Source: Proteromonas lacertae (lineage: Eukaryota). Taken from it: 64,000 nucleotides of DNA. The position numbers and the translations under genes are program-made. Positions 10,283 through 63,716 of this stretch are shown piece after piece (position 1 is the first letter of the stretch; each line of letters opens with the position of its first letter). The stretch covers positions 1 to 64,000 of the forward strand of contig NGBS01000888.1 in assembly GCA_002245135.1 (NCBI GenBank). Reading direction: 5' to 3'. Below the pieces are notes generated by a model. It was not told the DNA's origin, searched no databases, and worked only from the letters and a program-made list of their open reading frames with translations.

Positions 10283-10401
10283 GGTGTATGTGAAACTAAT
10301 ACATTCGTTGAACCTATAGTATAAAAACCTATAAAAATAATACTAGTAAAACTGATAAGAATTAATATGATTAAAATTTTATTTAAAGAGTAATAAAACA
10401 T
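1..10401 (-). CDS. Giant polycystin-1/REJ-GPS-like surface receptor, copy 1 (runs off the window start; broken here by apparent indels)
   Basis: ORFs 8506-10401, 1700-8008 and 778-1737 are the reverse-complement match of 21201-31409. ATG at 10401 starts a hydrophobic signal peptide containing a 30-nt in-frame phase-1 GT-AG intron (10314-10343). Relative to copy 2 there are single extra bases in homopolymers at ~1710 and ~805, and an indel-rich stretch at ~8020-8530. Confidence 0.85.
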
Positions 10402-13675: not shown

Positions 13676-16600
13676 TTAAATTCTTACACCAGCATCTTTT
13701 GAAGCATCAACCATTTGTTCAGCTGTTTTTCGAACATGTTTTGTTCTTCCACCTACTCTGACGTAAATACAATAACCTCCTAAGAATACAACTCCTCCCA
13801 ATATTATACAACCAATTATTATTCCAACTAAAGCACCTGTTGTACTTCCTGAACATTCATCAATTGGACTTTCCCAGATTGCATTCCCATCTACATAAAT
13901 ACATCTTCTCATTATAAAACCAGATCGACCTCCTCCACATTTTATTACTGCTTGATCACCTACTAGAGTTTCTGGAAAACCATCATTAGCTGGACATTTC
14001 TTTGCTTTAAACTCTAATTTGATTGTTACACTTGCTGATTTTCCATTTGAATCTGTTACTGTTATTACATAATCTTGTTTTGAAACATCAACCACTGAAA
14101 GTCCTTGTAAATATCCAGAAGCAGATATTACAAAACCATCAGGTAATGGTGGATTTATTGATACTGATAAACCATCTCCAACTGCATCAAATAATTGAAT
14201 TGATACCATTGTTCCTGTTGCTACTTCTATATCTTTCTTTACTGTTGAATCAGGAATTACTGGTGTTTCACTTTTTACTACTACTATTAACATTTTAATC
14301 TGAATTGAGTTTTTACCATTAGATACATTGATTGTATAAGTTGTATTTTGAGTATCTACTTTGCCATAACCATTAAATGTTCCTGTTTTAGAATCCATTG
14401 TTATTCCACTTGGTAATGTGGGAGTAATTGAATAAACTAAATTTGATCCACTCACTGTAAAGAATCTCTCATTAAATAATTCTTGCCCTGTTGTTAAGAT
14501 TACAGATTCATTTTGACTAATTACAACTGGAATATCATCACCTTGAATTACTGATACTAAAATATCTTTTGAAACTGTTTGACTTTTACCTGTACAAGAG
14601 AATTTGTAGCTAACTGCTGATTGAGCTGAAGCGGTTACTTTTCCTTTCATTGCACCTGTTGTTGCATTGTAAGTTAAACTGGCTGGTAAATTCTTATCAA
14701 TGCTATAAGTTAAGGGATTTGAATAACATAATATTGGATATTGATTATCATAATCCATCATATAGACTAAATCTAATTTATCTACAGATTCAACCATCAC
14801 TGGTTCATTAGGTATTGTGATTAAAAAGGAAATTTGTCTTGATGTCGATTGACCAGCTGTATTAGAAATTGTAAACATACTGGAGGACATACCTGGTCTT
14901 GTTGCTTTTCCTTTAATAAAACCAGTTGAAGAATCCAATTCTATACCGAATGGTAGCTGATTTACACTATAACTCACAGGTGATGCACTTTCTACCCAAA
15001 ATATTTGTTTATGTTGTTCATCTATTTCTTCATAAACATTAGCCACTACTGCAGGCATATATTTCCATATAATAATATTGTTAGTTGCTTTAATGATTAG
15101 TGTCATTGTTATTTTACCTGAACCATATTGGTTTGTAGCAGTAAATGTGATTGAATAAGTAGCTCCTTTATATGGAGTTCCATTTATTAAACCAGTGGTT
15201 GTATTATATTTTAATCCTGGAATAAACTCACCTGGTTCACAACTTGGACATGAAAAACTATAAAATGTTGGATTTCCTGTGACTTCATATATTGATTCAT
15301 CTACATAAGTCACACCAGCATCAAAAGTAAATGTCAATTCTGTATTTATGAATTTAGGAACTTCTCCACAAGTAGAATTTACTTCAATCCATAAAGCAAA
15401 GTTTGAACAATAGAAATATCTTTCACCTACAGCGCCTTCTTGACTACAATTAGCTTTATAGAATGTATTCGATATTCCTTCAGGTAATTTTTCGGTTGGA
15501 TTAGCTACACATTTCTTAGTTCGACATAAATGATATCCAATTTCTCTCACTTCCATTCCTTTATTAACATAATCATATTGGTTTGACTTGGGTATATCAA
15601 TTCTTACACTTTTATATAATGTATAAGGATCTACGTTGAAGGTTGCTCTTCCTGGTGTATATTTCTTTGTTTCAAAGTAATAAACTGGATCTAATGAACC
15701 AATCGACACTGTCGATGTGTCTGTTTTACCTGTTAATGACACTTTCATTGGATAATGAGTTTGTTGACCAGTACCAGCTCTCATTGTGAATTGATTAAAG
15801 GTATAATGACTATTACTACCAAATGTATAATCAGCATAGGAATAGCCATCTACAGTTCCATAATAATCATCCCATGATGATTCAACTGATAAATCAAATG
15901 CTGCATGAGCAAAAGATGATTCATATTTACCAAAACTTTTACTAGATGAATCACTTACACTTCCACCATAAAGTGTAACTAAAATACAATCTTCATCATT
16001 ATCTCCATCTAATGGGAATATAAAAAATCTATCCTCATTTGGGAAATTATCATCCGTTGGACTTTTATGAATTTCATAAGTTATTATTGCTGTATCATTT
16101 AAATCATCGATTGGTAATATGAAATTCTCTTCTCTCGCTCTTTCATAAGCAGTATCTCCTGGAGTATTTGGACCTATATCTCCACTTGGTAAATTATCTC
16201 TGAATATTACTCTTCCATTTACTCTGACTATTACACCAGATCTATGTTTAATTCGAAGGAAATAACCTGAATATTTGTCATAATTTGGGAATGATAATGG
16301 ATATCTCAAATAATATGTTGGCATAGTAAGTGGAGGTTGAGCCAATGTTGTTATTGGTGATGTTGGCCATGTTAAAGTGAAGTTTTTAAATTCCCAATTT
16401 GGAACATATTGTCGATTATATTGCCATTGTGTTCGAGTATCCATCAAATATGTAACTATAGAAATTATAAAACAATTAATATATACAATCAGTTGTTATA
16501 TTTACTTCACCATTATCAGTATAAGACACAGTATATCTACCAATTATGGAATTACCTGCATAGATTGTCATATTGGAATTTCCCCAACCACTTCCACTTA

Positions 16601-19600
16601 TATCAATCAATCTCAATGTATACCATCCTTTTGTTATACACATCTTTATACTGTTTATTGAGTTTTCAGTAAATGTATTATCTACTCTTTCAAATACAAC
16701 TTCATCTTTTGAATTGATTAATTGATAAGCAGGTCTATCATATTCTTTTCCTACAGCTAAGGTTAATCCAATCAAGAATTTTCCTGCATTTTCACAATCA
16801 TCTTCTTGAGTATCAGGAATTATATGTATTATCATTTCTACACTCTTTCGACCTTTATCATTTATAGCTGTGATTGTGTATGTTGTTGCATTGGTAATAA
16901 AACGAGCTGTTCCATATATTCTTCCTGTTATATTGTTGAATCTAATACCTCTTGGTAATGCTGAAGGAGTAATAGTGAAATAATCAACAAATGTTTCTAT
17001 TGTTGGAATTAATAGGATTTGATTACCTTGATAATAGGTTGCATTATTGGTAATATATTTAAAATTAGGTTCAACAGGATCTATTCAATTACATATAATT
17101 AAATAATATATACCTGTGTTAAGTACAACTGTATGAGAATCAGTAACAGGAAAATCACCAGTATATCGATAGATTCTTACACCATCATTATAAACAGTAA
17201 ATACATAATCAAACATTCCACTTATATATATTGTATAGGTATCTACTGGAAGACACATACTGTAAGTTCGAGGTAAACTAACTGTGGTAGTTTCATATAC
17301 ATACATCACTCTTGTACCATTTGATGCTGTTACTCTTAACACTAAATATTGACCATTATCAACAAAATCATTACTGAAATGGAAGGAATGTCTTTTTCCA
17401 CTTTCACATCCACCTTCAGCTTTTATTCCAAATTCAAATTGTTTATTATCACCATCAGAAGGAAGAACAACTGCAGTTACTGTCACTTTTGTATCTAATT
17501 TTTCTCTCGGACTTCCTGAAAGAGTTGATGATTTCCAATCATATGTAAAACCAACTGGAATATTCTCAGCTCTAAATTCAATTACATAACCAGATTTCAC
17601 ATGGAATTGAAGATCATAAAATTCACCCACAACTAAGGATATTGAATCAGTATATTCTTTTCCAGTTTGAAGATCTATTACATAAAAATCTGCTGGTGAT
17701 TGAACAGCTATTTAAGATAATAAAAATAAATGAATTATACTTTTCACAGATATATAGATAGTAGTTGAAATAGATTTATCAAGTGTACTTGTAACTTTGA
17801 TTTTATGAGCTGTCATTTCAACATAACTACTCACATCTGGAACACCAGTTATAACTACAGGCATACGATCACTTCCTGAACAAATTTCTCTCAAACCATT
17901 TGGCAATGGTGGATCAATAACTATACTCTTACATCCAAACTTTTCAACTGCAATAACCTGATTTTTTACTGTTTGACCATTAAGATATGTCGCTGTACTT
18001 TGAGTCATTAGGAAATAATCATTTACTGGAACATAATGGAAATACATATTTGTCTCCCTATATTCATCTTCATCAGCAGTATTTAGCTTACTTAAAAGTT
18101 TAAATGTAGCATGACCATTGTGTGAAACATAATAAATCTGAACCAAATAATCATCATCAGTCATATTAAAATCAAAGAATCCTTCATCTTCAATTGTATT
18201 TCTTCCTGGCTTAGCTAATACTTCTTTATGATTAAAATAAACCCAATAACCACCATCTGCAATAACTTTAAAATTATAAAGACCTACAATAACAAATGTA
18301 GGATATAAATAACCTTCCCAATAAACACCATAATCATCAAGAAATTCTATACTCAATCCATCAGGATGTGGCTGTTCTTGAGATTCTACAATAGATGGTC
18401 TGTCTTGTCTTTGGATGTATAATGGATCAATACCATCAACTTCTGGACCATATTTTGTATATAAACTAGTATCGAAATTATAAGGTTTGTAATAATAAGC
18501 TCTTACTCCATTAACTACAGTATCTGTAACACGAAGTTTCAAGGCTATTTCATTTGTTTCACTGTCTTGATTTTTACATTTGATTTTAACTTCTGTATAA
18601 TCCATCATAGATTGTGGATGACCTGTTATACCACTCACTGTTACTTCTGATCCCTCTGGTAATTCAACATTATTACTTATCCAACAACTTTCAGCTTTAC
18701 CTTTTGATACATGTATTGGAGTTAAACTAAAGGCATCTAATTTCCAACTAACTTCGGCAACATCAGCAGATAGAAACATTACTGGATTAAAATTTGAATA
18801 ATCTATTCAGATAATAAACAATATATATATATACAATATTTAAATGGAATGGTTTTTCTTATACTACTTCCTGCAGTGGAATAATCTAATACAAATTTGA
18901 AATCTAATCCTTCACCTCCCATAAAATCTACTATCACTCTTCTATAACCACTTTCTAATTTCACTGTTTTCTTCATTGGATCATCATTCCATGGTTTACA
19001 TTCACTCCAATCAGATAATACTTCAACATCATCAATAAACACTCTAGCATTCATTTCATTACCAGTTTGCATATAAAAGGTATAATCACCAGCTGTTTCA
19101 ATATTGATAAATCCATCCATTGTACCATTAAATGTTGTTATTATACCCCAAGGTGATACTTGCATTTTTTGAATCCAACTTTCATAATTGGTTAAGTTAT
19201 CTAAATTATTCATTGGAGCTTCAAATGGAAATTCATATGTAGGGATACCATCATAATAATTACCACATTTCGTTGTCTCCAAATCATAAAATGTTACAAA
19301 TATACCATCTTTTAATTCAGGATTCTCTACTTTAACAATATCAATGTCAAAACTTCCAGTTCCAGCATCATTTCTAGCTTCAATAGTAATTTTCATGTTA
19401 GTTTGAGGATTGAAATTTCGAAATGTCAAATAGGGACCATCTTGAGAAACACCTCGGATTTCTTTGGGTGTCATTGACCAACTATCATCGGAAGCATCAC
19501 CTGTTGAAGTACAAGTAATAACTGTATTAATAAGAGAGACTGTTGTTAGTTTTGATACACCACAATTTACAACAGGAGCAGACATACCTAGTCAAATTAT

Positions 19601-19951
19601 ATATATAATTGATAAATATACAGACTATCATCAATATGCACGATGCTTGATCATCTTGACCTGCATTATAAACGATTGTATGACTTGTCCAAGATTGAAC
19701 TGTTGGAGTTCCGGAGATATATCCTGTCTTTGAATCAAGTGATAAACCATCTGGTAAGTCTGGTGAAACAGTGTATGATCCTTCTTTTGAAGGGTTTGGT
19801 TTATTTTCGGTAATAACACTTCCTACCACATAAAATGGATGCATATCTTCATAATCGAATGTCAAAGCACAAGAACAACTTGCCATGCATAGTACTATTA
19901 AATAATAATAATAATAATCATACACACAACTGTTAATGCTAAGAATCTCAT
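13676..19951 (-). CDS. Type I single-pass surface protein (~2,027 aa): signal peptide, putative-Ig (He_PIG-like) repeats, PA14-like domains, Cys-rich HRM-like modules, TM, short tail ending GVRI
   Basis: Seven exons. Introns 19895-19923, 19588-19621, 18803-18834, 17708-17740, 17081-17113 and 16456-16486 join the listed ORFs in frame (6,084 nt). Repeated LP.G...D..TG.I.G.P motifs, PA14-like G.Y.F...DG..V..D motifs, C-terminal CPANDGFPET..C..RRC..W..C, and TM GALVGIIIGCIILGGVVFLGGYCIY. Confidence 0.85.
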
Positions 19952-21058: not shown

Positions 21059-24000
21059 ATGTTCTTTAATTCAATTCAAATTTTACTCACTCTCAGCATT
21101 TTACTTAAGGTTGCATGTATAAATAGTATTATATCATATTTTAGTTTCAAACAATGTTAATACGTTAGTTTCGCCAACAAACCTCAGTATAGGTAAAAAT
21201 GTGAATATTAAATTTACATTAAGTCAATCACCAACAGATTATGTTTCTATATCAATAGATTGTCCAACTGATTTGGAATGTTCACGTTCAGAGATTAAAT
21301 TGACTTCATCCAATTGGAACGATGGTGCGAATGTTGTAGTAAGAGCCCCAATATCATTAAGCTCTCTGGTGTCAAATACCTACAAGATAGCTTATAAAGT
21401 GCATTCTAACAGAGGTGTAGCTGGGAAATATTATTATCACAAAGGTACAATCGATGCTTCATTCCCAGAATTTACAGATAATTCTTATTGGATAGAAGTA
21501 GAAGATATCGTCTCTCCTTCCTTCAAAGTGCATAAAAACAATGATTATTTACAAAATGCAATTCACATGGAAGGATGTCAAGTTGGTAATAATCAAGAAT
21601 ATAGTTTTCAAGTGACTGGAGCTAGTTATCTTCGATTAAAAATAGATGGAAATATTGTAATCGATTATACATCAGTTAGTAAAACAGCGTCTATCTTATT
21701 AGACAGCAGTCGACATACTTTTGAGTTAGATGCAATAAATCCAAATAATGGTAAAGATATGGTATTAGTTCAATTTCCAGGTAGTAGTGAGTATGTTGCA
21801 ATAAATCAATACTTAACAGTTCCATCCTATGATAATACAATCACATCAGATATAAACAATGAAATATTATTAAAACTAGTAAAAGGTGAGATATATACTG
21901 ACATTAATCCTACTCTCAGCGCCTCAGGTTCAACTACCGTTAAACTTTCATTAAGTGAACCTCCCAGTTATGATTTTACATTTGCAGTTTATTGTGGTCC
22001 TCATTGTATGACTGATATTAATCCATATACATTAACTACAAGTGATTATAAAGATAAAAGTATTATTTTACATTATAAAGAGAACAGCGATTATGTTAAT
22101 AAACATTATAAATTAGAATTAGTTCCAATCATTAGCACAAGAGGTACATTATTTACAATATATCAATTAATAACTGGTAAAACAGTCACAATGGTAAAAC
22201 CTGATTTTACTGATACTACAAAATGGACAACTTATATAAGTGTAGTAAAAGATGATAAGCCAATAAATGAAGTTAAACTCAATGGTGGAATAGCTAATAC
22301 AATGTATGGTTCAGATGTAAATACATACTTCTATAATAGCAGAGATGGATATTATACAATAAAATATGATGTTAATGATAATGATAGATTCTTTCTATAC
22401 ATTGATAACGAATTGATATTGTATTGTTATGAAGGTAGAACATGCGTTAAAGAGATTATTAGATATTTTGAAGTTGGTTATTTCAATCTACATATCGTTA
22501 GTTATAATGTAACAGAATTAACATTCCCACTTACTGGTAAATGTGTTGATGATATAAATGTTGATATATTCTTATATACTCACAGTTTTCGTAATATTGA
22601 TAGTACTTATTATAATCAACAACCAAATGCTAAAGTTACAATGAATCATGTTGTTGATTACGATATTGCGGTAACAAGTGCTACTGATTTCACTATTTCA
22701 TCAACAATTACTGATACAGTTCAATTTCAACTTAATAAAAACATTATGAGTGATATTCAGTATAATTTTAAGTGTACTAAAGGAATTATATGTAATCCTG
22801 GTCAAATTACTGTTAATGCTGCACAAGGATCTAGTATTCCAGTATTTAGCTATACAACAATAAGAAAGACACAAGATATACATCAATATATATCACCACA
22901 AGAATATGTTATACCTACAATCACTACTTCCACAAAATTGCAATTAACACAAACTATATTCTATTTTAAGAATGGTATGGCTGATTATGTTGGTATTCCT
23001 CCATTAGCAACAAGTGTTTGGGCAGTAAAGAAAACTTCTTTGATTGATAGAATAGATTATGTTGGTGTTGAGTATTATGTAGATAATGCTTATACAATAC
23101 TTGTATCTGGTATGTATTATGCTTCTTGCAGTGGTAATTATAAATTCTATTTAACTTGTTATAAAGGATGTGCATTATTTGTTGATAATGAGTTAAAAAT
23201 CAATATGTTTTTTAATCAACCTATTGCATTACAATTTACTACTTGGGTTTATATTGAAGAAGGATATCATCAAATTAATGTATGGCATAATACTTATTTA
23301 ACTACTTATGGTGTAAAGTTAGAATTAGAAAGTGAAATATGTGGAATAACAAGGCAAACATACAGTGCAAATATAAACTATAATATTAAGGAAGGTATAT
23401 TGTTATATAAACCAAAACCAATTGTTGAAAATATGCTTGATGTTTCTACTACAAAAGCTTCAATTAAAGCAACAATGAAATCCAATACTGTAAATGAAGG
23501 CAGTTCATTATCTATTAAGTTAACATTGATAAATAATGACCAAATATATTTGAAAGTATTTATATCACTTCAAACTGGTCCATTCTTAAGCTGTAGTAAT
23601 AATGAATTAGTGTATGATAAAACTACTAATAATTATGATGTTGTTATTTCTTATGCTGAAGATAAAATAGTGAATAGTTTAAACAATTCATTTTTGTATA
23701 TTGATGTTAAAAGTAAGAATAAATTATATGTTGAAGAATATGGAACAATTAATTCATCACCATTTGGATTTGAAAGTAAACCAAATTTAGATGATCCAAG
23801 ATGGGAGAAAAGAAATGAATATTTCTATGATAGTTTTAACTTGAATTATCCTGATTCTAGTTTAAGTGAAGCTGGTAGATTATATCATATAATTACCTTC
23901 ATAAAAGTAAATATAGCAAAAGTTTATGTATTTTCATTGCAATGTCGAAGTAATTGTGAAATAAATGTGAATGGTTTAATGTCAATCGAAAGTTACAGTA

Positions 24001-27000
24001 ATAGTGGAATGACAATTAAAATATCATCAGGTTATTTGAGTGTAGGATATCATAAGATTGATATATTATACAACTATGAAAAAGGAAGTGAAGGTTTTAT
24101 AGATATTAAATATCGTCATGCAACTGGAACTTCTTATGTAAATTTGTTGAATATCATATCATGTACAGATCCAAGTTTTGAATATAATAGTGGATTAATT
24201 CTTCCATTACAATTAGTTGATAATGATAAAATAATAATAAGTGGTTCAAGTGATAATACTAACAATATATTGGATGTGAGTAACAATAAGATATATAGTT
24301 ATAATTATAATATGAATGATATAGAAAATGATGTTGAAATGGAATTAGATGTTCCAGAAGTATTTAAAAGTTCAAGTAATAAGATTATATTAAATAAAAA
24401 CACCCAAAGTCATAAAGTGAGTTTTGAATTGAAAGATGAAGATATATTATTTTTGAATTTAGCTAGTTTGAGAATAACTCATCATATTCCAGAATTATTA
24501 TATGGCAGTTTATTAGCTGAATATTATGTGATGAGATTAAGTCCAAGTAATATATTTGATTTTGAAAGTAATGATTATTATTATAAAGTCTATAAAGATA
24601 AGAATAGTGTTATATCCACCAATAATAATATAATAATAGATTATGATAAGAATGATAATAATAAATTAATCCCAAATCTATTAGTGGAAAAGAAAATAGG
24701 AATAAAATGGAGTGGTTATATTTATACAGATTGTATTGATAATATGAGATTGAGATTAATAAGTGAGAATGAATGTGAAATATTAGTTGATAATACAGTA
24801 GTATTTAGATGTAATGGAAATTGTGATAATGATATAAGTTTAAATGTGGAAATAGGAATTCATAAAATGGAAATAAAAATGATAATAGAAAATGATGAAA
24901 ACTATAAAATGAAATTATCTAAATCCTCAAATAGTTGTATATTGAATGGAATATACTATGAAAATCCTTATAAAAATGTAATAATTGAAAAACCAATAGA
25001 TTATTCCTTAAAAGTTCAATTCCAATCTATCAAATGCAGAATATATAATCAATGATTCCAATAATTTTGTGATGAGATATCCTGATGAAAATAGCTTAAG
25101 ATTTACAACAAAAACAAAGCCATATTATAAATATAATATAAAGATGACAATTCCAAATACAATCAATGTGATATCTGAAGTATCGAATGGTGGAACAGAT
25201 TTTAGTTCGATATTAAAAGTGAAAGATGACAGAGTAAGTGGAATTCAAAGAATCTCCTTATCTTATGGATATGAGAAAGGTATAATAGTTGAATATTATG
25301 AATCAATAAATGAAATAAAATATTCAGGAAATTTGAATGATATAAGATTTAGTGATGTTTCAAAATGGAGAAAAAGAGGAATAAATGAATATTATGAAAG
25401 TGATTTTGAAATATCTAAAAGTTTAAATGATATATCAAATTATGGTGTATCTGTTTATTCTACCTTAAAAATCTCTGTTAGTGGTTTATATAAGTTATAT
25501 TTACAATGTAATAGTTGGTGTATTTTATTAATTGATTTGAATAATGTATTAAGAATATTTAATAGTAATTCTATTGAAGAATCAATTGAAGTGAATTTAG
25601 AAAGTGGAAATCATTACATAGAAGTTCGATTAATTAGTTTAAGCAATGTTTATAATATAAGATTATCTTATGAAAGTACATCTAATGGAATAAATAAGAA
25701 TATAATAAGTAAATCAATACTATCAACAGTTGATCCAGTATATGATGGAATAGTCTTAAATGCAATCGAATATCAAACAATTCCATATATAACAAGCAAT
25801 ATAAACTCCGCAATAACATTAAATAATAATGATGAAATCCAAGTTGATATAAATACAAATTATGCAGCTGATCCTGATTTAGTAATAAAAATGAAGAGTG
25901 AAGATTATATAGAATTAAGTAAAAGTGAGATAATATATAATATAATCAATTTTGGAGTTAGTCAAAGTTATATAGTGAAATTCAAATATCCCAATTCAAT
26001 ATTACTTCCATTTAAAACAAGTGGTTTAATATCCTATGAAATAACTCCAGAAATCTATTGCAGTTCAATATTGAATAATGTAAATGTGAATTTAATAAAG
26101 CCAAGTTATGATAGAAGTGGAAAAGAGAATGAGACATTAGAATATAGTTTTGTATTAAGTGAAAAACCAAATAAAGATGTAAAACTGACAATCGAATGTA
26201 GTGATGTGAATAGAATCTTATGTAGTAATAATGAACATATATTCAATATGAATAATTATAATAGTTTATATAAAGTAAATATGACATTAATTCATGATAA
26301 AAGAGTAAATGAAAATAGAATAATGCCATATAATATAAGAGTAAAGATGGAAAGTGATGATATAAGATATCATTCTCTAAATATTGATCCATTATATATA
26401 AGTATTGAAGATATTGATAAAGCTGAAATAATGTATGAAAGTGATTGTACTAATGCATTGATAGAAGGTGATAATTGTAGTTATTCATTCTATTTAACAA
26501 GTATTCCCTATTGGAATGTAGAAATAATTTTTAGTGATAATGGAGTAAGTGATTTACCATTGATATTTAGTGAAGAAAAATTATCATTTGATGATGATAA
26601 TTGGAATATAAAACAGAGAGTAATAATAAGTACAAATGAAGATAATAAGAAAACAGGCGATATATCAAATATGATAAATTTTGAAATAAGAAGTGATGAT
26701 AATGATTATGAAATATTGAGTATTCCATCTCATTCAATAACAATAAAAGATAATGATATTCCAAATATAGTGATGACAACTAACTGTAATGGGAATATAA
26801 AAGAAGGTGAAAAATGTGAATTGAATTATAAATTAACAACAATACCTTCATCTTCAGTAGAAATCAGACTATCAATCGAAAATTGTTTATACAATACAAT
26901 CAATATTGCAAGTTCCGTAATAATAATAAGTAATGAATGGAATATAAATCATAAAATCGAATTAAGAGTTGATCATAATTATATAGACACAATGAATGAA

Positions 27001-30000
27001 ATAATTGAGATAAAACAAAGCATCAATACAGTTGATAATGATTATAAAGTAATAACCATTCCAAATGTTGATTTAACAATAGAGAATATAGATAAAAGTG
27101 GAATAGAAATAGAAAGAAAATGTAAAAATGAGATAAATGAAGGTGAGAAATGTCCAATCTTATACAAATTAACTTCGAAACCAACAAATCCAGTAACAAT
27201 CTCAATAAATATGATAAATGAGAATAAGAATGTTAAGTTAATAAGTAGTAGTAATAATATAGATATATTAGAAAATGGTTGGAATAGTCAATATTTAATA
27301 GATTATGAATCAACTCATGATAATATTCAATATGGTAATTCAAAAGTGATAATAAGCTATACAGTCAGTTCAATAGATGTAAAATATAACTCAATAGTAT
27401 TAGAAAATGATGAAATAATGATAAATAATATCGATGTAGCTTCAGTGGATATAAAATACTATTTCCCAGTTCCATTTTATGAGACTTTAGATGGAATAAT
27501 TCGAATCTCTTTAGGTTGTAAACCAGAAACAGCTTATTCAATAAAAATAGAAGTATCTGATAATCGAATAAGTACAAGCCAATCAACAATAATATTTGAT
27601 AATTCAAATTGGAATGAAACAATTGAAGTGAAGATTAATCCATCAAAATCATTATTAAGTGATGGAAATAAAGATTTGTATTATATAAGTTATCAGACTG
27701 ATGGTGATTCAACGTTTAAAAGTATAGTGTTATATCTAAGTGAAATGAAAATATATGATTTAATATCAACATTAATAGTAGAAAATAAAATATTTGATTA
27801 TATAAAAGAAGGTGAAAAAGGAGAAATATTCTACTATTTAAGTGAAAGACCAACAAGTTCAGTAGATGTTTATATTCATTGTCCATCTTCAATCGATTGT
27901 AAGATAGAGAATAATGAAAATGAAAATGATTTAAAGATTCGATTTAATCCAATAAATTACAATAATAAGATTCGAATGATAATAAGTGTATATGAAGATG
28001 TAATAGCTCGAGGTAATTATAGTGAAGAAATAAGATATGAATTAAAGAGTAATGATGAAATCTATAATAATCAAGAAATAATTCCCACAATAATCTCAAT
28101 TCATGATGTAACAATTCCCTCAATAAGTGTAGTTTCTTATTTAGCAAATCCATTTTATGAGAATAATAATGGATATGTAAATCTGATATTAAATAGTAAA
28201 CCAAATGATATAATTAGATTATATTATATGTGTAGTTCAAATATAAAATGTTCAACAACAAATGAGAATGAGAATGAAGATGGATTAATAATAATAAAAG
28301 CCGATGAATGGTTTATTCCAAAAGTATTAAATATAAAGAGTGAAAGTGATAATGAAGTAAAGAATGAGAATATGAATGGTGTAATTGGTTTTATAAGTCA
28401 AAGTAATGATATATTTTATAATAATATAAAAATCGATGATTTTGTATTTGAAATAATAGAAAATGATAAAGCTGAATTGATATTATCAAAGAATCTATTA
28501 CAGTTATATACCAATAATAATAATAATAATAATAATATAAATTATAAAGCAACATTCAGTTTAAGATTATCAACCAAACCATCAGATTCAGTAGAAATTC
28601 AGTTTAATTATGATGAAACGTTGATATTGTTAAATGAAAGTTCAATCTTATTTAATGGAGATAATTATAATGTTGAAAAAGAGATAGAAGTGAAATACAT
28701 AAGTAATAGTTTTTATATTTATCCATTTGGTAGTTCAATCGGATTTAAAGTCAATTCAAATGATGTAAATTATAAAAATATGAGTGTTCCAACATTGAAA
28801 TTGATAATAAAAGATGAAATAATAAGTGATATAACAAAGCCACCTAAAATGATATTAGCAAAATTAGAAGAATCTGATGATATAATAAAGTTAGTATTTG
28901 ATAGTGATTGCTATGTAAATGATATGGGCAAATATCGAAAGTATGATTGTAATGGTTTATTTAGTAATAAGACAATGTTATTATTAGGAATGAATAGTAG
29001 TTGTGAATGGATATCAAATAATGAGATGAATATATACCTAGGTAATATAAACTATAACAGTGAAATAAATGAGAATAGTGTAATAGAATTAAATGAAGAT
29101 GGAAATCGAGGAATAAAAGGAAGTGAGAATAGTATATTATATTCAACAGGAAAGATTATAATAAGTTTGCGAGAATCTGTTCCTAAGATGATATCCAGTC
29201 AATTCTCTTCAAGTGGAGTATCAATTTTAGTGTATTTTGATCGAGATATTTACAGTGAATTATTGAATAATAATGTAAATGGAAGTGTTGATTGTTCATT
29301 ATTGTTTGTGAATAATAATTTAGGTTATGGTTGTTATTGTCAATTCAGTTCAAAGAATTCAATTCGAATAACTTTAGGAATAAGTGCAACAATAATACCT
29401 GAAGATATATCTATTAATAATAATGAATGTGATGAGAATAAATCCTTGTATTTGATAGATAATATGATAAAATCCACATTATCAAGTAAATATGGTTCAA
29501 GTGGATGTATAAATGTTTTATTACCCAATGAATTACCAATTCCTTATCCAGTAATAAGTGGTTTTACTTCAATATCATATTGTAGTGATATAAGATTTGA
29601 TGGAAGATTAACAACTCAAACAGCAGGAAGAGATGGTGAAATGAAATGGTATTTAGAAAATATAACCAATATAGTTGAATCAGAAAATACAATGGATGAA
29701 AGAATCAATAAAATAATAGAAGATTGTAATAGAATAAACTGTAAAATAGTCAATATTCCATCTCACACCTTATCTCCAGGTTATTATAAATTATCATTAA
29801 AAGTAAAGAATTACTTAAATCCAATGTCAAATATAACATCTCATTATTTCCATGTCAAAGCAATAGGAATTCCTGAAATAAGTGTAGAAGGTTCAACAAT
29901 AAAAGAAATGTCAAATAATGAAGATATGTATTTAACAGTTCGTGGTTATTGGCCTGAATGTTATGAAACAGATAAGAATGATTTTCGATTTATTTGGGAT

Positions 30001-33000
30001 ATTTATAATGTGAATAATGATAAAATCGATATAAACAATTTCTTAACAAATGATAATAAAACACTTTATATAAAATCGTTTTCATTAGAAATTGATATTT
30101 ATTATATAACAGCTACAACTTATATTGAAGGAAATCCATCAATAAAGTCGAATATAACAATAGAATTGAATATAATAGCAAAGAAATTATCTTGTATAAT
30201 AAAAGATGGAAACCGTGAAGTAGGAAGTGATAATAAATTAATATTAAATGGAAGTTTATCAATTGATCCATCAGATCCATTTAATGACTATGGTGAATTA
30301 AATTATGAATGGAAATGTAGTAATTACAAAACGGGTAAGAATTGTCCATCTTCAATAATATCACCTCAAAGTTCAATATGGTATATTCCATCAGGAATAT
30401 TGAGAATTGGTGAAACTTATTTATTTGAATTAACAATAAGTAAAGAAGCATTTGGAATGAGTAGAATAAGTAAAGATGTTGTATTAATAACAATAATTGA
30501 AGGCCAACCACCAGATATTCATTTAACCACATCAAAAGAATATATTTTACCAAGTGAAATGTATGAAATAACAGCTGTAATAGAGCCAAGTCGAATAGAT
30601 GATAAATTATATTGGAGTTTAATAGAAAGTGATAAATCATTTGATGATATATTTATATTACCCTCAAATAACAATAATACAATAATGATAAAACCTAATA
30701 GTTTAACTAGAGGTTATAAATATGACTTAAAATGTACAGTGATAAGTAAATATGGTAAATCTTCAAATGTAATCGAATTATTAGTTCATAATGGTCCAAG
30801 TTCTGGTTATATAATTGCCGAAAATCGAAATGGAACAGAATTAAAGACATTATTCAAATTATCAAGTGATGGTTGGAATAGTGATTTACCAAGTAATTCT
30901 TATAGTTATAAATTTGCATATATTTATAAGAATGAAGAAATCTCATTGCAAAGTCAATATTCATCGAGTAATACAATATCTGTATATTTACCATGTGGTG
31001 ATAATGAAATAATTGTGTATGTAAAAGATGTTCATGGATATATAAGTAAAGGAATATTAGATATAAATGGTGAAAAAGTGATAATTCATGTAAATAAAGA
31101 TGAGAATCTAACAAAAGAAAAGATATATGAATTTATGGATAAAACCTTAAATGATGAAAGATATCGATCTAATTTTGATCATATAATAAGTCAAGTAATA
31201 ACAATCAGTCAATCAAGTATAGGTGAATGTGATAGAATAAAATGTGTAAATGGTAAATGTGTAGATGGAAAGTGTTTATGTAATGATAATTATAAAGGTG
31301 AATTATGTGATATTCCTGAAAGTATAAATGGTGGTTGGAGTGAATGGAGTGAATGGTCATTATGTAGTGCTTCTTGTGGTGGAGGTATATCCTATAAACA
31401 TCGTGAATGTAATAATCCTAAGCCATTGTATGGTGGATTAGATTGTATAGGAAATGAATATGAATCTGTAGTTTGTAATGATATTCCATGTGGTGATAAG
31501 AAGATAAATGGTGGATGGAGTGAATGGAGTGAATGGTCATTATGTAATTATGACTGTAAATCTGATGATTATGGTTATCATGAAGGTTATGAAGAAAGAA
31601 AACGAAGTTGTACAAATCCATCTCCAAGTATAAATGGTGATATGTGTATTGGTAATGAAATAGAAAGAAGAAATTGTAGTGTAATTTGTGATAGTAAAAT
31701 CAAATTATGTCCAAATGAATATCGTGATAAAAGTGGTAAAATATTTGGTAAAGCTTGTAGTGGTAATGGAAAGTGTTATTATAGTATATCTGGTGAAGAA
31801 AAGAATGAGAATTTCAAATGTAATGAAGGAGAAAAAGGTTGTTTTACATATTGTAAATGTGAAGATAAATATGAAGGTGAAAAATGTAATATATTGAAAG
31901 ATGAGATAAAAGAAAGAAAAGATTTAAATCATGATTTATTAGTATATATTGAACAAGGAATAAGCAATATAATATTGCGAAATGAATTATATTATCAATT
32001 GATAAGTTCGTTTAAGATCTTTGTAGAAGAAGCTAGTGAAATATATAATGAAGATTTAAAAGTGATATTAAGAATATTAAGTGAAAATATGAAATTATTA
32101 AGTAAATCAAGTGATATAATGGATAAGAATAATATAAAATCATTATTTGATGTAGAGAATAAGATTTATATGGAATTATATCGAAGTGATATAGAAAATA
32201 TTCCAAATGAAATTGAATATTTGAATGAGATGTTTAAAGATATAGAAAAACAATTATATGTTCAATATTACCCATCTGAACCAGCATTAGAATATAAGAA
32301 TGAATTATTTTCATATTATTTCTATAAAGAGAAAAGTTCTCCATATGAAAGTCATCGGATCAATTCTTTAAGTGTTTCATTACCAAAGAGTTATAGTTAT
32401 AATAATAATTATCGAAGTGTTCAACTAATTGATTGGATATTAAATCCATTTGTATCAAATGAACAATTGAATAGTTCAATAGTATCAATATCATTATTAA
32501 GTAATGAAAATGAGAATAATAATCTATCTTCAATAAAAAATAGTAAAAATGAAGATAATAAATATAATAGAGATAATGTAATAACATTTACAATAAAGAT
32601 TCCATCTCAATCTGATAGTCGAAATTATGAATGTGTATATTTTGATCCAATAAGTAAAGAATATCGAAGTAAAGGTGTAATATTGATGGGAATATATAAA
32701 GATAAAGCGAATGATACTTATATAATGTGTATGTCTTTACATTTAACAGAATTTGGTTCAAGACAAGCGAAATATGTTCCATCAGTGAATTTAGTAAATC
32801 CAATTAAAGATGCTTCTTTATTAGCCAATTATGATGTAAATTCGATGTTTGTTCCAATAATCTTAGGAGTGTTATTGTTATTCTTTATATTGATGTGGTT
32901 CTATTTACATAATAAAGATTGTGAAGCCTATGAAATATTTGCAGATAAACAGTATGAAATGTTTGCCAAAGCAGGTAAAATCGATGATTTACCTCCAGAG

Positions 33001-34368
33001 AAAAGTGGAATAGATGAATCAAGTATAAGTGTATTTTTCTCTCAATTGAAAAGTCAACATACTTGGATTGGTCCAATAATTGCTCCAAATGAGAATATAA
33101 TCTTAGTAAGTCGAGCTGAAAGATGTGTTTGCATATTTGCGATATTATTAACAGATATAGCTGTATTAGCAATGTTTCATGGTACAAGAACTGAATCTGT
33201 GACATTAATATTTACAACTGGAATAATCTCCGCTTTAATATCATTGCCTGCTTCAGTATTAATTCCTCATTGTTTCATGTTTGCTAATAAATTTTCTTCA
33301 GCAACAATAAAAGATTTTAATATCTTCAAAAGATTTGCAAAAGTAAAGAAATCAATAGATAATTCTTTGTTATTTAAACATGAAAGTGATGATGCAAATG
33401 AATCAAAGAAGTTGAGAATAAGATTCCATATAATGATTTCCACCTTTATTTTGTCATTTATCTATATAGTTTCTGTAATAATAGGATTTTTCACATTTGG
33501 GATAGACGGACTTGGATTTATGTTGTTTATAATAAATATAATCTATACAATCCATTCAATCTGTGGAGTAAAATTAGGTTCATCTGATTTCCTTCGATCT
33601 TTCAAGATATTCCTATGTTGTACAGTGTTATTATTAATAATGGAAATAGTATTTATTGGAATGTTATTTAGTTTTACCTCTGAAAGTAGTGGTGAAAATA
33701 TGTGGATATTTGGATATAAAGTATTAAAACCAGTAATCAAAGATATAGAAAGTTATGGTGAATGTTGTGGTTATTCTTCAATCTATAGATATGCAGTTCA
33801 TGATTGTATGAATCCCAATTTATTAGCAACTGGTTATAATCCAATAAACTGTATGAATACAGTAAGTAAATTATTGAAAGAATATTCTCCTTTATTATTT
33901 ATTTGGTTTATTAGTTCGATAGTAATAAATACCTATTTAGTAATATTATGTATAAAATTCTTAAGATTACCAGTTTATGTAGTAAAAGAAGATAAATTGA
34001 CAGTAAAAAAAGTGACAGAAGAACAAAGACATGCTGCTCATAAGATTCAAGGATGTTTATTGAAAGTAGTAGCAAAAAAGAATGCAATAAGAAGAGAAGA
34101 ATATAAGAAATGGTATAGACAAAGAAAAGATAGAAAAGCCTTGACAATGTTAGTATATACATTTACAATCGTTTATTGTATATTTATGATGTATTTGAAT
34201 TTATTATATGGAATTAAGTTTGGTAAAAGTCAATCAGTTGGATGGATAATAGCTTGTGTTGTAACGATATTAATCGATGTATTTATTCAACAACCAATAT
34301 TTATATTATGTAAATCAGTTGCTGGAACAACAATAATTCGAATAATAAGCATGGCAACTCATGTTTAA
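21059..34368 (+). CDS. Giant polycystin-1-like receptor, copy 2 (~4,426 aa if one frameshift is corrected): signal peptide, PA14-like domains, Calx-beta/cadherin-like repeats, REJ-like region, EGF, 2x TSP1, GPS, PKD1-type TM segments, tetraspanin-like module, IQ motif
   Basis: ATG 21059 and a 28-nt phase-1 intron (21117-21144) lead in frame into ORF 21201. A +1 base at ~25015 relative to copy 1 separates ORFs 21201-25055 and 25069-34368. Motifs: NGGWSEWSEWSLC twice (TSP1), CVYFD..CMSLHLTEF (GPS), SRAERC, YGIKFGKSQSVGW, GECCGY, AAHKIQ. Confidence 0.88.
21174..31409. repeat. Right arm of >10 kb inverted duplication
   Basis: Reverse complement of 1-10282. Identical shadow ORFs appear in both arms (e.g. 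4633-4845 and 26567-26779). Confidence 0.95.
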
Positions 34369-34419
34369 TATTATAATTAAATTATTATTATATTTTATTA
34401 ACAGCTGTGTGTTTGATTA

Positions 34420-37903: not shown

Positions 37904-40900
37904 ATGTTTTTTTTAAATTCTTTCGCAGATGATGTATTTTGCTCAATTCTACCATCTGAAACTCAAGTATTTTGATTGATTTATATTTTATAGATAAAAG
38001 AGAGGAGAGAAAAAAGTAGAAATGAGCTAGATTTGGTTGTACAACATGGAAATACTATTAGGATGGTAAAAATTGTAAATGTTGTTGGATTAAAAGAGAA
38101 GAATATTTTAAAATTCCATGAAAATCACTCATTTCTGAAGAAATGTTGTTCAGGAATTGTAAACCCTTCTAGAATACTTCAGATGAATATTAGTAATGAC
38201 TTTGTATTAATAACACGAAAATACTACTCGAGAGATTTAGAAGAGATAAATCAAAGTAAATTCTTATCTGATGGTGATATCTGTAATATGATATGTTCAA
38301 TATGTGATATTATGATGATATTATGTGAATATGGAATAGTGGTTTGCAATCTGAAGAGTTCAAATGTTATAATTGATATAAATAATAATAAAAAGATGTG
38401 TGATTTATGTTTGAATGAGTTGAGAAAAGAAGAAGATTTGAGAGTGTATGACTTGTGCTTCAAAAGCCCTGAAGAGATGAATGGATTGGAGTGTAATGAG
38501 AGAAGTATGGTTTGGTCAATTGGTTGTTTATTATATGAAATGATAAACAAAAGATTACCATTTAATGAAGATGATAACATAATTAAAACAATGAGCAATA
38601 TTATGAAATGCAAATACAGTATGTATATAAAATGTGATAATATGATGAAAGAAATGATAGAAAGGATGTTAAAAGTGAAAAATAAGGATAGAATGAGTTT
38701 GAAAGAGTTGAGAAAAGAAATGATAAAAATGAGTGAAATATTGAAAGATAAAGAAAGTAATTTGATGATATATAAAGAAAAAAAAGAAATATTGTTTAAT
38801 GATGATTATGCAATTATTAAATTTCCAATAATATATCCATCTGAATATTATCTTGAAAGTGATAAATGGAAAATTATTCGCAATAGATTGATAAAATCCT
38901 ACAATAAAGAGCCAAATGAAAGAGTTTTATCCATTTTAGTGATGATGAAATTATTAAAAAGTGATTATTTAATAAAAGATAAACTAAAATTTCAGATTTG
39001 TCATAAATGTAAAGATAGTAAAAAATGTTATTTAGATGAAAAAATATTCAATCTATTATATGATGATTATGGAATTATTAGAGTATATTCCTATTCTATT
39101 TGTCGTTGTGAAGAAGGAATGAGTTATTTGTTCAGCATAATAAAGCTAATCAATCCAAAGAAACTTAAATTTTGTATAATTTCAATCATTTTCTTGAATA
39201 TTCCAATTCAGTGTCAATCATTATTTGGATCATATTTTACTGAATTATCAAATCTAATAGAATTAGATATATTATTGTGTCATCTTTCTTTTCATTTCAT
39301 TGAATCATTTGTTAAATCAATTCCATCCACAAAATTGAAATATACAAATCTTACATGTATTTGTTATGATATATATTATTTGATATAGGCAATCCAATTG
39401 GTATAAATGGATTCAAATTGTTACTTCCATATTTATATTTATTTATAGATGGAAAGGATAATTTTATTGAGAATCTTTTTCAAATGAATCTTTACGAAAT
39501 GAATTTAGATGATGAATCAATGATATTATTATCCAAAGAATTATATAAATATCCAAATCTGAAATATATAAATATTACATGCAACAAAAAAATTCATTCA
39601 GCAGGATTAAAAGCTTTATTCTCAAAATTTCCTATTTCAAAGATCAAATTCAATTTTAATGGAAGTAAAAAATTACTGATTGATAAAGAAATTCCAGAAT
39701 TAATCAAATACCTTAAAGATCATAATAATGAATTGAAATTGAGTGATTTAGAGATAGATGATTGTTTCTTTAAAGCATTAATTTCTTTAAGATCAAAAGA
39801 ATTGAAAAACATAATAATATTAGATTTAAGAAGTATGATTTTAATATTTTTATTTTATTTAGATAATAACCTCACATATAAAAGTATAGAAGTAATGATA
39901 GACAATGTATCTTCAGTTCCGAATCTTCGCTATCTTGAATTGTATGGTAATAAAATAGGAGATGAAGGAATGAAAATATTATCTCCACATTTGCATTTAT
40001 TAAAAAATGATGATAGAATTTATTGTAATAGTATTATAATTGCTATTATATATTAAATAAAATTAGGATTATCTTCTATTGGATTAAAATATATATTAGA
40101 TGGTTTAAAGAATATTCATGGAAAGAGAAAGCTTGATATAAGTGATAATAATATTGATTCATCTGGACTAGAGTATTTGATGAATTATGAGAAAGAGAAT
40201 CACAAAATAAAGTACATATTCATTCACAGTATGTATGTATATACTATTTTTGAAATAGATAATCCAATTGGTAATAAAGGATTTAAATTATCGTTAAATA
40301 AAGTAAAAATGTTAAATATTGTTCGTGAGATGAATTTGAGTAATATCTCAATAGATGATGAAAGTGTGATGCTATTATCAGAAAAATTAGATTCAATTGG
40401 ATATTGTGAAGCAATAAATCTAAAAGGAAATAATATTAAAATGGTTGGATTAAAATCAATGTGTGAAAAATCATTAGAAAAAGAAGATTATCCATTTATA
40501 AAGATGAAATGTTTATCATGGACAAATGAAGAGTTTGAATATTATTTGAATTATTGTATTATAAAGAAAAGAAGAGATTATAGGGAATATGATTTTTCAA
40601 GTATAAATTCTCATCATCTAATGAAATAGATATGAATATTAATGATTCTCATATTTCCATAATTAAACAGTTAGATTATGAAAAACTTGATTTGTCAAAT
40701 AACAAAATTACCATTAAAGGATTTATAGAATTAATGGAAATGTCTAAATGGGCATTTATATTCATATCTAATAATCCAATTGGAGATGAAGGAATAGAAA
40801 TTATATATAGATATATAGGTAAATTTGTATATCAATACACATTAAATTTTTCAAGTATTTAATTAACTATGTTTATTCTTCTAATTCAAATAGATATTGG

Positions 40901-41171
40901 AATGACTGAAAATGGATTGAGAATGTTAATGGAAAGATTAGAGGATTATGAAGCATTATGGAGTATAAACCTAGAAGGAAATGAATTAAATGAAAGTGAA
41001 TTGAGATTAATGAAAGAACACTTAGAAATATTCAAATATGTAGAAGATTTATCAATCACCTTAAAAGAAAATATTGATAAATCTGAAGTAAAATCATTTT
41101 TAGAAACATTCTACTCTGTTGAAAGAATCAAATTGAATGGAATGAAGGAAGAATTATTTGATATTGAATGA
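37904..41171 (+). CDS. Pseudokinase + RI-like leucine-rich-repeat protein, copy A
   Basis: ATG 37904, intron 37967-37993. Kinase fold with a degenerate catalytic loop (VCNLKSSNV) and DFG replaced by DLC, retaining SPEE and VWSIGC. Followed by L.L..N.IG..G repeats split by phase-1 introns. Confidence 0.8.
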
Positions 41172-47685: not shown

Positions 47686-50582
<2,897 letters not shown>

Positions 50583-54379: not shown

Positions 54380-56907
54380 TTATTTATATTTCTATTCTTA
54401 TCACTACATTTTTTAAATATTCTAAAAATCTTGTCAGCATATATTCAAACTATAAAAATCAATTTTATTCATCTTTCAATGGCTCATTTCTATCTAACTT
54501 CATCAAACAATACTTTAAACACTCACTATCTAACAAGTTTCAAAACTTTGTAAAGTACATTCAATATCATATCTATATTAGTTTTCTAATATACAACCAT
54601 TTTCTATTATACACAGTCAACTAGTTCAAATACTACTTTATACTTACATCAAGTAATTATTCTTTTATTCATATCTATTTCGTTCCACCAACCATTGTAA
54701 AATAATCATACCACATACTGATACACATATTATATTAATAACATATAAATTTGAAAAAAGAATCAAGCTTTCAAAATTAGTAATTCGAGCTATTTTTGTA
54801 TTTCTGTTTTTTATGAGTTTAAATGATGGAATAACGAATATAAGATGTGAAAAAACAAATTCAATACAACAAGAAAGAAATATAAGATTAATAATAAAGC
54901 TCAACAAATCTATAACAATTGTATTCCTAGTTTCTTTTTCTTTCTATCTTCTATTTCTGCATCAGACAATAATTTAAATATGTAAATCATTCCATTATAT
55001 GTTCCGACTAATATACTCAAGTCGATTTCGTCAAATTGTATAGTTGCTGGTTTTATTAAACTAAATCGATCATCTAAATCTGCTGAATCATTATTATTAA
55101 AAACGTCTTCCCAACATAATATATCGAGAGTAGCTGCCTCTAAAGATATTATGTGTGGTTTACCTTGTAGCATGTATATATATAGGATACCTTCCTTTTC
55201 TACTACATATTTTTGTTCAACAATAAAGTCGATTCTTAATTCACATCTCCTTCTTCCTGTTAAATCATATACGCAAATTCTATGCTTAGGTAAAAAGAAA
55301 ATTATTTTGCTCATATCTCTATCTATGATTATAAATCTACCTTCCCCATTAGTATCGTTTAATACTACTTTTTTTTTCTCATCATATTTGAAACGAATTG
55401 TGATATTATTATTTTTAGTAGCGTAAATAATTGTATCATGCATTATATCGATCAATTCTATCTCTCTATGATTAGTAATAGGAAGATTAAAAGTTGTTGT
55501 AATACTCTTCTTTACATCATATACTCTACATACTCCTTTTCTGCTTGCAAATAATAATAAATTATTTCTATCATCTATTTTTACATAGTCTATATGACCA
55601 AATCCAAAAAAATTTATCATTTCATAATTTCTAATATCATACACATTTATTACACCATTCTCACTTGTAATCATATATTTATTTGAACATAAGAATGGGC
55701 TGTAAGAAGTAAATGATTTATCAGTTGGTACTATATATTCCATATCAATTATGCTAACATCAGTTGACTTGTTTTTCTTTATTATGTAGTTGTGCTTTTC
55801 ATCGAAATATATATCATCAACCATTTCATCTTCTTCTGTTTCTAGGAGACACTTAAAAGTCCAGCAGTCTTTAAATTATAATTATAAATATATCAGTACT
55901 TCTTTTGTATATTGATACATAGTCTAATCTACTTTTAACTAAGTTATATTCTGCGGTTTGAAGAATTTGACTAACATCTGTAGGAATAAGATAACGTAGT
56001 TCATCATTTCTGGTTTCTCTACCACGAATAGTGTCAACTTTTGCCTTTTGGAATTAAATTAATAAGAGTACTACACATATAAAATGATCAGCTCTGAGTT
56101 TGTATTTAATCAACTCTTCAGGATGTGTAACTATGTTGCACATTAATCTTAATTGAGGACAAAGGAAATTCATCTTAAAATCAAAAGAAGAAAAAAGTGA
56201 TAAATATTTCTATTCTATTATGCAAATACATCACTATGAGAATTTTCTAAGTGCTTTTTTTGTTTTTTTTGTTATTTATCTCAGCAACTAAAAGGAATTA
56301 GAAAATAAAAATTTCACAAATTGTGACTAATGTTATAAGGTCTATGAAAATATACTTAGTTACTATATTACCTAATTTAGGTAATTTTTTCATTTTTCAG
56401 TTTATTTAAATTAATTTTCTAGATATTACTAAATTACATCATATATTTTTGATTTTACTAATTATTAACTCAAAATTCTGTTTTTATCACTCAAAAAATG
56501 AATTTAAAAAAACAAAAAAGTTCGTGAGATTTGAGTCAAAATTGGACATTTTTGAGCTTTTCAGCCGAAGGAGGAATCATATTTAAACGGCTTTATAATA
56601 TTTTCCGGGAAATGGGATTTGCAAATTTTTAGTATGCTTACTTTTTGAATAGGAGGTGAATGGTATTTGAGTGGTAATTCCATATTTTCGTAATTTTATT
56701 GGATTACAATATAATATATCAGGTATCTATTTTGTAGTAATAATATTTTTAACTAATTCACTCTAATTATGGAGATATTCCGAATAGTACATAGAATCAA
56801 TAGGTGGTGTATATGGTTGTATAATATTATATAAACACAATAAATATATATAAAATACTTAAAATTACTTCTACAGTACTTTAATTCACTTCATTCTCTT
56901 CTCTTCT
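54380..56907. repeat. Left arm of a 2,528-bp inverted repeat
   Basis: Reverse complement of 57844-60371 (paired coordinates sum to 114,751). I noticed one mismatch, at 54403/60348. Confidence 0.95.
54910..56173 (-). CDS. WD40/beta-propeller-like protein, copy 1
   Basis: 304-aa ORF with repeated GVINVYDIR, GVCRVYDVK, RICVYDLTG and VGTYNGMIYIF, plus probable upstream short exons. The start is uncertain. Confidence 0.7.
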
Positions 56908-57136
56908 TTTATCCACATTCACTAGTTAGAAAGTAATTAGAGATATAGTAATTGTAACATGGAACGCTAACCCTAACACCATGTAATATATAACAACAAA
57001 AAACTATTTATGATTAACAGAATAATGTATGAGTAGTTTGTTTCATATATGTTTTTAGACCACAATCTGCAGCCCGCTACAAACTGGTGTCTATATTCCT
57101 GGCTGTATAATTTTAAGCTCAACTTTTGTTAGTCAA

Positions 57137-63300: not shown

Positions 63301-63716
63301 TTACTTATTTTTATATCATATTCACTCAATATTATCAATATATCACATATACTACATATCATATAAACAATTTCAGCATTTGAAAGAACTTTACTTCGAA
63401 TAATCTCTTCCATATCTTGAAAGTAATATTTTCTTTCTAATAGCAGCATACTACCCCCGATTAAGTGTATTTTAGATGGTATGATCATAGATAAACAACA
63501 ATCTAACAGCAATGAGATATTTTCTATCTTTTTCAATACTTTTCTCTCATTCATTTCATCAATATTTATCACCTTCAGCATTTTCTTTTCATTCTCTTTT
63601 TCTACGAAGAAATTTAACTCATTTTTACTCTTTTCTCTTCGTTTAATTATCTATTATATAAACATTATACTAGATACTTTCAAATTTGGTATATTACATG
63701 TTACGAATTTGTCCAT
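60387..63716 (-). CDS. Pseudokinase + RI-like LRR protein, copy B
   Basis: ATG 63716 and a 27-nt intron (63651-63677) at the same position as in copy A. ISNLKSSNI, CDLF, KSPEE and IWSVGC. LRR exons are paralogous to 39418-41171. Confidence 0.8.
60409..60775. repeat. Direct repeat, partner 53659-54025
   Basis: Near-identical at an offset of 6,750 bp. Confidence 0.9.

Follow-up and report, generated by a model that had tools for sequence, protein, structure and literature searches.

A tetraspanin domain nested in the membrane region of a polycystin-1-type GAIN receptor of Proteromonas lacertae

The stretch of Proteromonas lacertae DNA analysed here (the window; 64,000 nucleotides of contig NGBS01000888.1, assembly GCA_002245135.1) is AT-rich eukaryotic DNA with 22-35% GC per 2 kb. 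It carries a gene for a very large receptor, the features of which are collected in Table 1. Two long frames of this gene, an upstream frame and a main frame, share an overlap of 44 nt. An inverted paralog crosses the equivalent of this junction in a single frame, and the two copies differ by one base near 25016, where the ectodomain frame of the 21123-34368 copy is broken. Because the paralog runs through the junction in one frame, we take both frames to belong to a single gene of about 4,400 amino acids, split near 25016 by a probable sequencing indel. The paralog, for its part, is interrupted by single-base insertions at two places, opposite 29699 and 30604. Translation of the receptor likely starts at the ATG of the predicted first exon, and the 28-nt intron that follows was picked from four short introns that keep the frame after this ATG.

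The paralog's membrane region falls past the left edge of the window, and the copy ends before any insert would show. An N-terminal part of about 2 kb (about 21900-23360) is far more divergent between the two copies, a pattern suggestive of a tip that varies or of recent gene conversion. Genes for Sec61, kinesin, tubulin and kinases are also present in the window. A multi-exon gene at 13676-19950 on the reverse strand has several He_PIG Ig-like repeats, represents a second type of large surface protein and is transcribed divergently from the receptor gene. Kinase-LRR genes occur as inverted paralogs (70%) at 37965-41110 and 60424-63679, and two tubulin genes on opposite strands (47686-50582) adjoin the kinesin gene, the forward copy being divided between two frames. 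Finally, a 2.5-kb inverted duplication with a WD40-like frame, 99.9% identical between its copies, lies at 54380-56913 and 57838-60371.

Table 1. Features of the receptor gene and its paralog in the window
Feature	Position	Strand	Evidence or remark
Inverted near-identical paralog of the receptor gene	1-10284	-	95.8% identity over 10306 columns to 21174-31409; REJ match
Predicted first exon	ATG 21059	+	signal-peptide-like hydrophobic stretch; then 28-nt GT-AG intron (21117-21144) into upstream frame
Upstream long frame	21123-25055	+	1310 aa; N-terminal third of ectodomain; weak PA14 match, no membrane segment
Main open frame	25012-34368	+	3118 aa stop to stop; rest of ectodomain and whole membrane region, no intron
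REJ domain	29959-31050	+	Pfam PF02010, E 7.5e-36
EGF-like module and first of two TSP1 repeats	31249-31491	+	Pfam EGF_Teneurin E 7e-5 (under cut-off); TSP_1 E 7.6e-12, two stretches
GPS motif HL-TEF, end of GAIN-like region, predicted autoproteolysis site	32740-32754	+	sequence
Polycystin-1-type TM1 (32845-32901), TM2 (33124-33180), TM3 (33208-33264)	32845-33264	+	hydropathy; structure alignment to PKD1
Tetraspanin module	33397-33984	+	profile, fold, ESM Atlas
Insert helices T1, T2, T3, T4	33430-33486, 33514-33570, 33607-33663, 33892-33948	+	hydropathy
Large loop of insert	about 33667-33876	+	hydropathy
CCG (33763-33771) and loop Cys at 33805 and 33850 (four-Cys large loop)	33763-33852	+	sequence, alignment
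Degenerate IQ-like basic helix, predicted cytoplasmic	34045-34086	+	sequence; no Pfam IQ match
Polycystin-1-type TM4 (34141-34197), TM5 (34246-34302), short tail, stop	34141-34368	+	hydropathy; structure alignment to PKD1

The domain order of the main frame is REJ, EGF, TSP1, the GPS motif and nine hydrophobic helices. A profile built from a 27-row alignment of the family matched the GAIN region of ADGRG6 (E 3.5e-10), and the Pfam GPS model was above cut-off in a relative, P0015. A hydropathy scan found exactly nine hydrophobic segments in the frame, all past the GPS motif; four of them lie between TM3 and TM4, just where four extra helices had been proposed.

The remaining five helices form a core of polycystin-1 type. 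The segments SRAERC (33109-33126) and YGIKFG (34207-34224), which the initial annotation took to be PKD1-type sequence flanking an insert, are where it placed them and share one stop-free frame. When the insert is skipped, helices 1-3 and 8-9 align with TM1-TM5 of human PKD1 (Z 16.8, rmsd 3.3, 192 residues). This alignment ranked first among 48,161 chains in VIA-align and pairs model residues 6-517 with residues 3063-3610 of 8z6b_A. The family profile also matched PKD1 weakly at TM4-5 (E 0.011). PKD1 has a PLAT domain between TM1 and TM2. PLAT is absent from this loop of the window protein, which has 69 residues as against the 117 positions of the PLAT model, is helical in the AlphaFold2 model and has no Pfam match. 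The channel half and the long tail are absent as well: the stop comes 15 residues past the TM5 match, and 56 of 57 family rows end within 190 residues. Polycystin-1 has eleven helices, a channel half and a tail of about 200 residues (according to the accessible part of PMC4810088). The window protein has in common with polycystin-1/REJ-family receptors a giant ectodomain, REJ, a GAIN region with an HL-T GPS and the TM1-TM5 fold, but it lacks PLAT in loop 1-2, the six-helix channel half and the long tail. It also differs in having TSP1 and EGF modules ahead of GAIN, a tetraspanin and an IQ helix in loop 3-4, and nine helices instead of eleven. Since loop 1-2 holds no PLAT and there is no channel half, the receptor is not a true polycystin-1; the name polycystin-1-like receptor, used in the initial annotation, suits the REJ-GAIN-TM1-5 part but does not extend to PLAT or the channel half.

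In the insert, three membrane helices are followed by a large loop and a fourth helix, the 3+1 spacing of tetraspanins. Tetraspanins are normally small stand-alone membrane proteins of 200-300 residues. Since the insert is internal to a frame of 3118 residues, we classify it as a tetraspanin domain and not as a tetraspanin protein. Its large loop has 70 residues, with model helices at 308-321, 323-333 and from 365 onward; the large loop of tetraspanins spans 69-132 residues and has constant helices A, B and E (accessible part of PMC2650405). The small loop measures about 9 residues between hydropathy windows and is a 4-residue turn in the model, with uncertain helix ends, against the 13-31 residues quoted for tetraspanins. 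The CCG and both other loop cysteines are at least 90% conserved in the 27-row alignment, as are the Arg and Glu of the post-IQ helix and the Trp of TM5. Exactly four loop cysteines are present in 25 of the 27 rows, and the remaining two rows are fragments without the full loop. As the rows were chosen for CCG, only the two other cysteines count as unselected evidence. The A/B helices of the loop and its four cysteines are kept at an overall identity of about 20-25%, and the inter-cysteine parts vary in length (62-119 aa). Juxtamembrane cysteines are present too.

The motifs from which a tetraspanin had been proposed can be found in the main frame, including LLLIMEIVF (33628-33654) and INCM (33844-33855). 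The CCG, the further cysteines and the INCM Cys are all there, but the loop cysteines now number four in all. The polar Glu of the third insert helix aligns with tetraspanins in the window protein but is not conserved across relatives. The insert resembles tetraspanins (Pfam PF00335; CD81, CD9, CD53, TSPAN15) in its four helices, in a short loop on the inner side, in a large outer loop that has A/B/E helices and a CCG with two further cysteines (the four-Cys type of CD81 and CD9), and in having both ends predicted to be cytoplasmic. Unlike them, it forms an internal part of a receptor of about 4,400 residues, its small outer loop seems to be shorter and its polar transmembrane residues are poorly kept.

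Taken alone, the window's module gave only E 0.34 with Pfam Tetraspanin. Searching solved structures by phmmer with the membrane region as a single sequence returned no matches, and the module folded without an alignment (pLDDT 52.5) had no meaningful structural match. Given the single-sequence E value, the proof of a tetraspanin comes from the relatives. Among solved structures, the profile of the 27-row alignment matched TSPAN15 (E 3.8e-11), CD53 (3.4e-10), CD81 (5.5e-8), TSPAN7 (2.3e-7) and CD9 (4e-7), and these alignments keep the register of the four helices, the CCG and both later loop cysteines. The profile also matched Sm-TSP-2, a loop-only construct (E 0.0014), so the tetraspanin match does not reflect hydrophobicity alone. 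With the AlphaFold2 model of the membrane region (pLDDT 79.5, pTM 0.61), the seven top rows in Foldseek were tetraspanins, the best at E 0.011 and none at or below 0.001, and the tetraspanin fold matches cover model residues 213-408. In VIA-align over the insert, tetraspanins gave the longest alignments (183-196 residues, Z 10.9-12.6; for TSPAN15, Z 12.6, rmsd 5.7 and 193 aligned), those to TSPAN15, CD53, PRPH2, uroplakin and CD9 leading in length. Sarcospan (Z 13.7, 119 residues), MS4A2 and two designed bundles tied with or exceeded TSPAN15 in Z, on 110-139 residues only. ESM Atlas features named Tetraspanin for 30 of 30 matches (best 0.93). Profile and fold thus uphold the tetraspanin assignment. 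These results demonstrate tetraspanin homology and a nested 3+4+2 order of helices, and the window protein almost certainly carries a complete tetraspanin inside the TM3-TM4 loop of a polycystin-1-type GPS/GAIN receptor.

The topology of the membrane region was predicted from the Lys+Arg content of eight loops in 17 of the 27 alignment rows, the 10 fragments being left out. The values alternate strictly, with 17.7, 17.1, 22.3 and 22.0% in the predicted inside loops and 9.7, 2.6, 7.5 and 6.9% in the outside loops; the CCG loop has 7.5%. N-glycosylation sequons were not enriched in the CCG loop (14 versus 11.3 in shuffled sequence). Because Lys/Arg alternates as expected, we place the CCG loop outside, in agreement with the topology first proposed. 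Neither of the outcomes named beforehand as refuting the proposal, a lack of profile or structural matches to tetraspanins or a CCG loop predicted in the cytoplasm, was seen. Considered with the sidedness of the PKD1 membrane loops, the TM3-TM4 loop is predicted to be cytoplasmic, with the tetraspanin's ends inside and its four-Cys loop outside, adjoining the GAIN domain.

Relatives were sought by phmmer with the 535-residue membrane region against 1.84 billion representatives, a query whose insert favours insert-bearing matches. Word-indexed homologue searches gave no matches, among them no stand-alone stramenopile tetraspanin as a possible donor, but these blanks carry little weight, because relatives do occur in the collection searched. 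There were 153 relatives at E<=0.001, and among the 150 matches listed, 40 had CC[GAS] in the last 600 residues. Pfam Tetraspanin matched 16 of 28 relatives scanned, all chosen for CCG; 10 were at or above the curated cut-off, five of these with REJ in the same chain, and 12 had no match. As controls, none of 12 four-helix CCG-less and none of seven insert-free relatives matched (0/19 together) versus 3/3 further CCG relatives. The named insert carriers among 30 proteins looked up were from Cantina marsupialis (four paralogs), Platysulcus tardus (two) and Bicosoecida sp. CB-2014, which show the same nesting in stramenopile relatives. The sources include Trinity transcripts of these three organisms, which argues against gene-model fusion. 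The insert is conserved across deep stramenopile lineages. Cafeteria roenbergensis has a CCG-less form, and Platysulcus also has a protein, P0117, with the same ectodomain and a 41-aa loop without an insert.

Fifty-seven rows had both halves of the core. After removal of two isoform duplicates, they comprised 22 with a CCG insert, 15 with four helices but no CCG, and 18 without an insert; P0047 was later taken out of the CCG class. Inserts between TM3 and TM4 nearly always have zero or about four helices, which keeps the orientation of the core. Many relatives are insert-free or have four helices without the large loop; thus, the insert is not needed for the receptor core. A tree of 52 rows (three dropped for low coverage), built on core columns only, was poorly resolved. 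A single clade of the 21 CCG rows was not rejected (AU p 0.5), and a single old capture of the tetraspanin insert is allowed, not shown. Grouping every four-helix insert into one clade, by contrast, was rejected (AU p 0.018, under a simple model with long branches). When a profile of the CCG-less four-helix inserts (9 rows) was compared with that of the tetraspanin module, no homology was indicated (probability 1%), and the CCG-less inserts could be a second kind of insert. Four closely spaced helices without a large loop were seen at this position in P0020, P0025, P0029, P0030, P0033, P0110, P0127, P0150 and P0037. Other cargo was also observed in the TM3-TM4 loop: in P0114 a PDZ domain comes after a tetraspanin, and P0040, which is insert-free, has PLAT and IQ, its PLAT lying after TM3 and not after TM1 as in PKD1. 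A PLAT in this loop fits a cytoplasmic location.

Downstream of the insert, the family profile matched the IQ proteins CFAP91 (E 3.5e-6) and Sp17 (E 0.002). The IQ consensus is [FILV]Qxxx[RK]Gxxx[RK], and it was found in full in 10 of 22 CCG, 4 of 15 CCG-less and 6 of 18 insert-free rows. Because relatives without an insert also have the full motif, the IQ motif is, judging from these sequences, a feature of the host receptor family and not part of the insert. The window copy shares with the calmodulin-binding motif (PF00612) a basic amphipathic helix beginning with IQ, but it has no RG core, departs from the consensus and has no Pfam match, so calmodulin binding by the window protein is doubtful. 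The initial annotation had embedded an IQ motif with the tetraspanin; an IQ-like stretch does exist there, but it is degenerate and belongs to the wider family.

Tetraspanins gather membrane partners. With modest confidence, we infer that the insert is a built-in lateral organiser, which would sort the receptor into a membrane domain and recruit partners to it. The receptor would cleave itself at HL-T, and its ectodomain may bind a surface or sense pull on one. Having no channel half, it must signal through partners, and the nine-helix fragment could do so by way of those gathered by the tetraspanin, namely free tetraspanins, a PKD2-type channel or other membrane proteins. The basic IQ-type helix past the insert may allow tuning by calcium-calmodulin in many family members, less surely in the window protein. 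A complex prediction of the insert with the receptor core gave a score of 0.30 (mark 0.34). The fusion would hard-wire a loose partnership of GAIN receptor and tetraspanin known from ADGRG1 (GPR56), which associates with CD81 (accessible part of PMC13197933). The ADGRG1-CD81/CD9 complex likewise unites a GAIN-domain adhesion receptor with a tetraspanin (same source), but it consists of separate proteins in a reversible complex with a 7-helix GPCR, whereas the window protein is one chain with a polycystin-type core.

The setting is perhaps the flagellum or flagellar vesicles, a guess from the named organisms and a published domain table. The named carriers (Cantina, Platysulcus and the bicosoecid) we take to be flagellates. 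The table, as far as the accessible part of PMC12129017 goes, gives domain counts without a description of the fusion. For Cafeteria and Proteromonas it lists REJ (8 in each), TSP1, GAIN, IQ and polycystin-channel domains; the eight Blastocystis strains, where cilia genes have been lost, have zero REJ, TSP1, IQ and GAIN and no polycystin-channel domains either (PMC12129017). No tetraspanin homologue was found by BLAST in a Blastocystis ST7 genome, according to the accessible part of PMC9648668.

The main rival to the organiser is rather unlikely: the insert would act in cis as a chaperone and clamp, its large loop binding the receptor's own GAIN/stalk for ER exit or holding the cleaved ectodomain. 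TSPAN15 does so for ADAM10 and CD81 for CD19, and both of these complexes, ADAM10-TSPAN15 and CD19-CD81, are among the closest matches with a solved structure. A cis role also agrees with the predicted position of loop and GAIN on the same face and with the retention of the A/B helices and four cysteines at such low identity, but Platysulcus P0117 has the same ectodomain and manages without an insert. We consider it improbable that the loop is instead a second outward ligand site, or that the four-helix cone carries lipid or bends the membrane for ectosome release, with little sorting of partners. The inter-cysteine parts of the loop do vary widely in length, as interaction surfaces do, and tetraspanins mark ciliary vesicles and are proposed membrane benders (accessible part of PMC8492061); however, these roles overlap with that of an organiser and are inseparable from it by sequence.

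It is very unlikely that the window copy is a decaying pseudogene of a real family or that the nesting is an assembly artefact. The extra base that breaks the ectodomain frame and the two insertions in the paralog might suggest so, but wherever one copy is broken its counterpart is whole, a pattern expected of sequencing indels, and a single open frame spans the membrane region. In one study of a related organism, gap-free contigs extend over 33286-33887 and 33829-34370 at about 87-91% identity, and transcripts from other species show the nesting again; no contig of that organism, in two runs of the one study, joins TM3 itself to the insert. Convergence of a generic four-helix bundle on a tetraspanin-like form, for which the weak single-sequence score, the Z of 12.7-13.7 for sarcospan, MS4A2 and designed bundles and the CCG-less inserts in the same loop might speak, is largely refuted and scarcely credible given profile matches over four helices and loop with the cysteines in register, 10 relatives at the Pfam curated cut-off against 0/12 CCG-less inserts, and the uniform ESM Atlas result.

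We retain the lateral organiser as the preferred reading. Only tentatively, we would extend it to an ancient class of stramenopile adhesion receptors with nine helices, where the captured tetraspanin may replace the channel half as signalling output, build a flagellar tetraspanin domain and couple to a PKD2-type channel. If true, this would offer a natural single-chain model for the engagement of GAIN receptors by tetraspanins. No description of a tetraspanin-in-receptor fusion was found in the full-text literature searched, whose coverage leaves out most subscription journals, in line with the initial view that the fusion had not been described. A tetraspanin nested in a channel-less polycystin-1-type GAIN receptor is apparently undescribed, though both parts are of known kinds. 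It represents a covalent, fixed-ratio complex of GAIN receptor and tetraspanin, open to structure solving and dissection, and indicates that the TM1-5 unit of polycystin-1 exists alone as the core of a receptor whose cytoplasmic loop is modular. It also means that the tetraspanins of stramenopile genomes include internal domains that stay hidden from single-sequence searches. In automatic databases, members of the family are named 'PKD/REJ-like domain-containing protein'.
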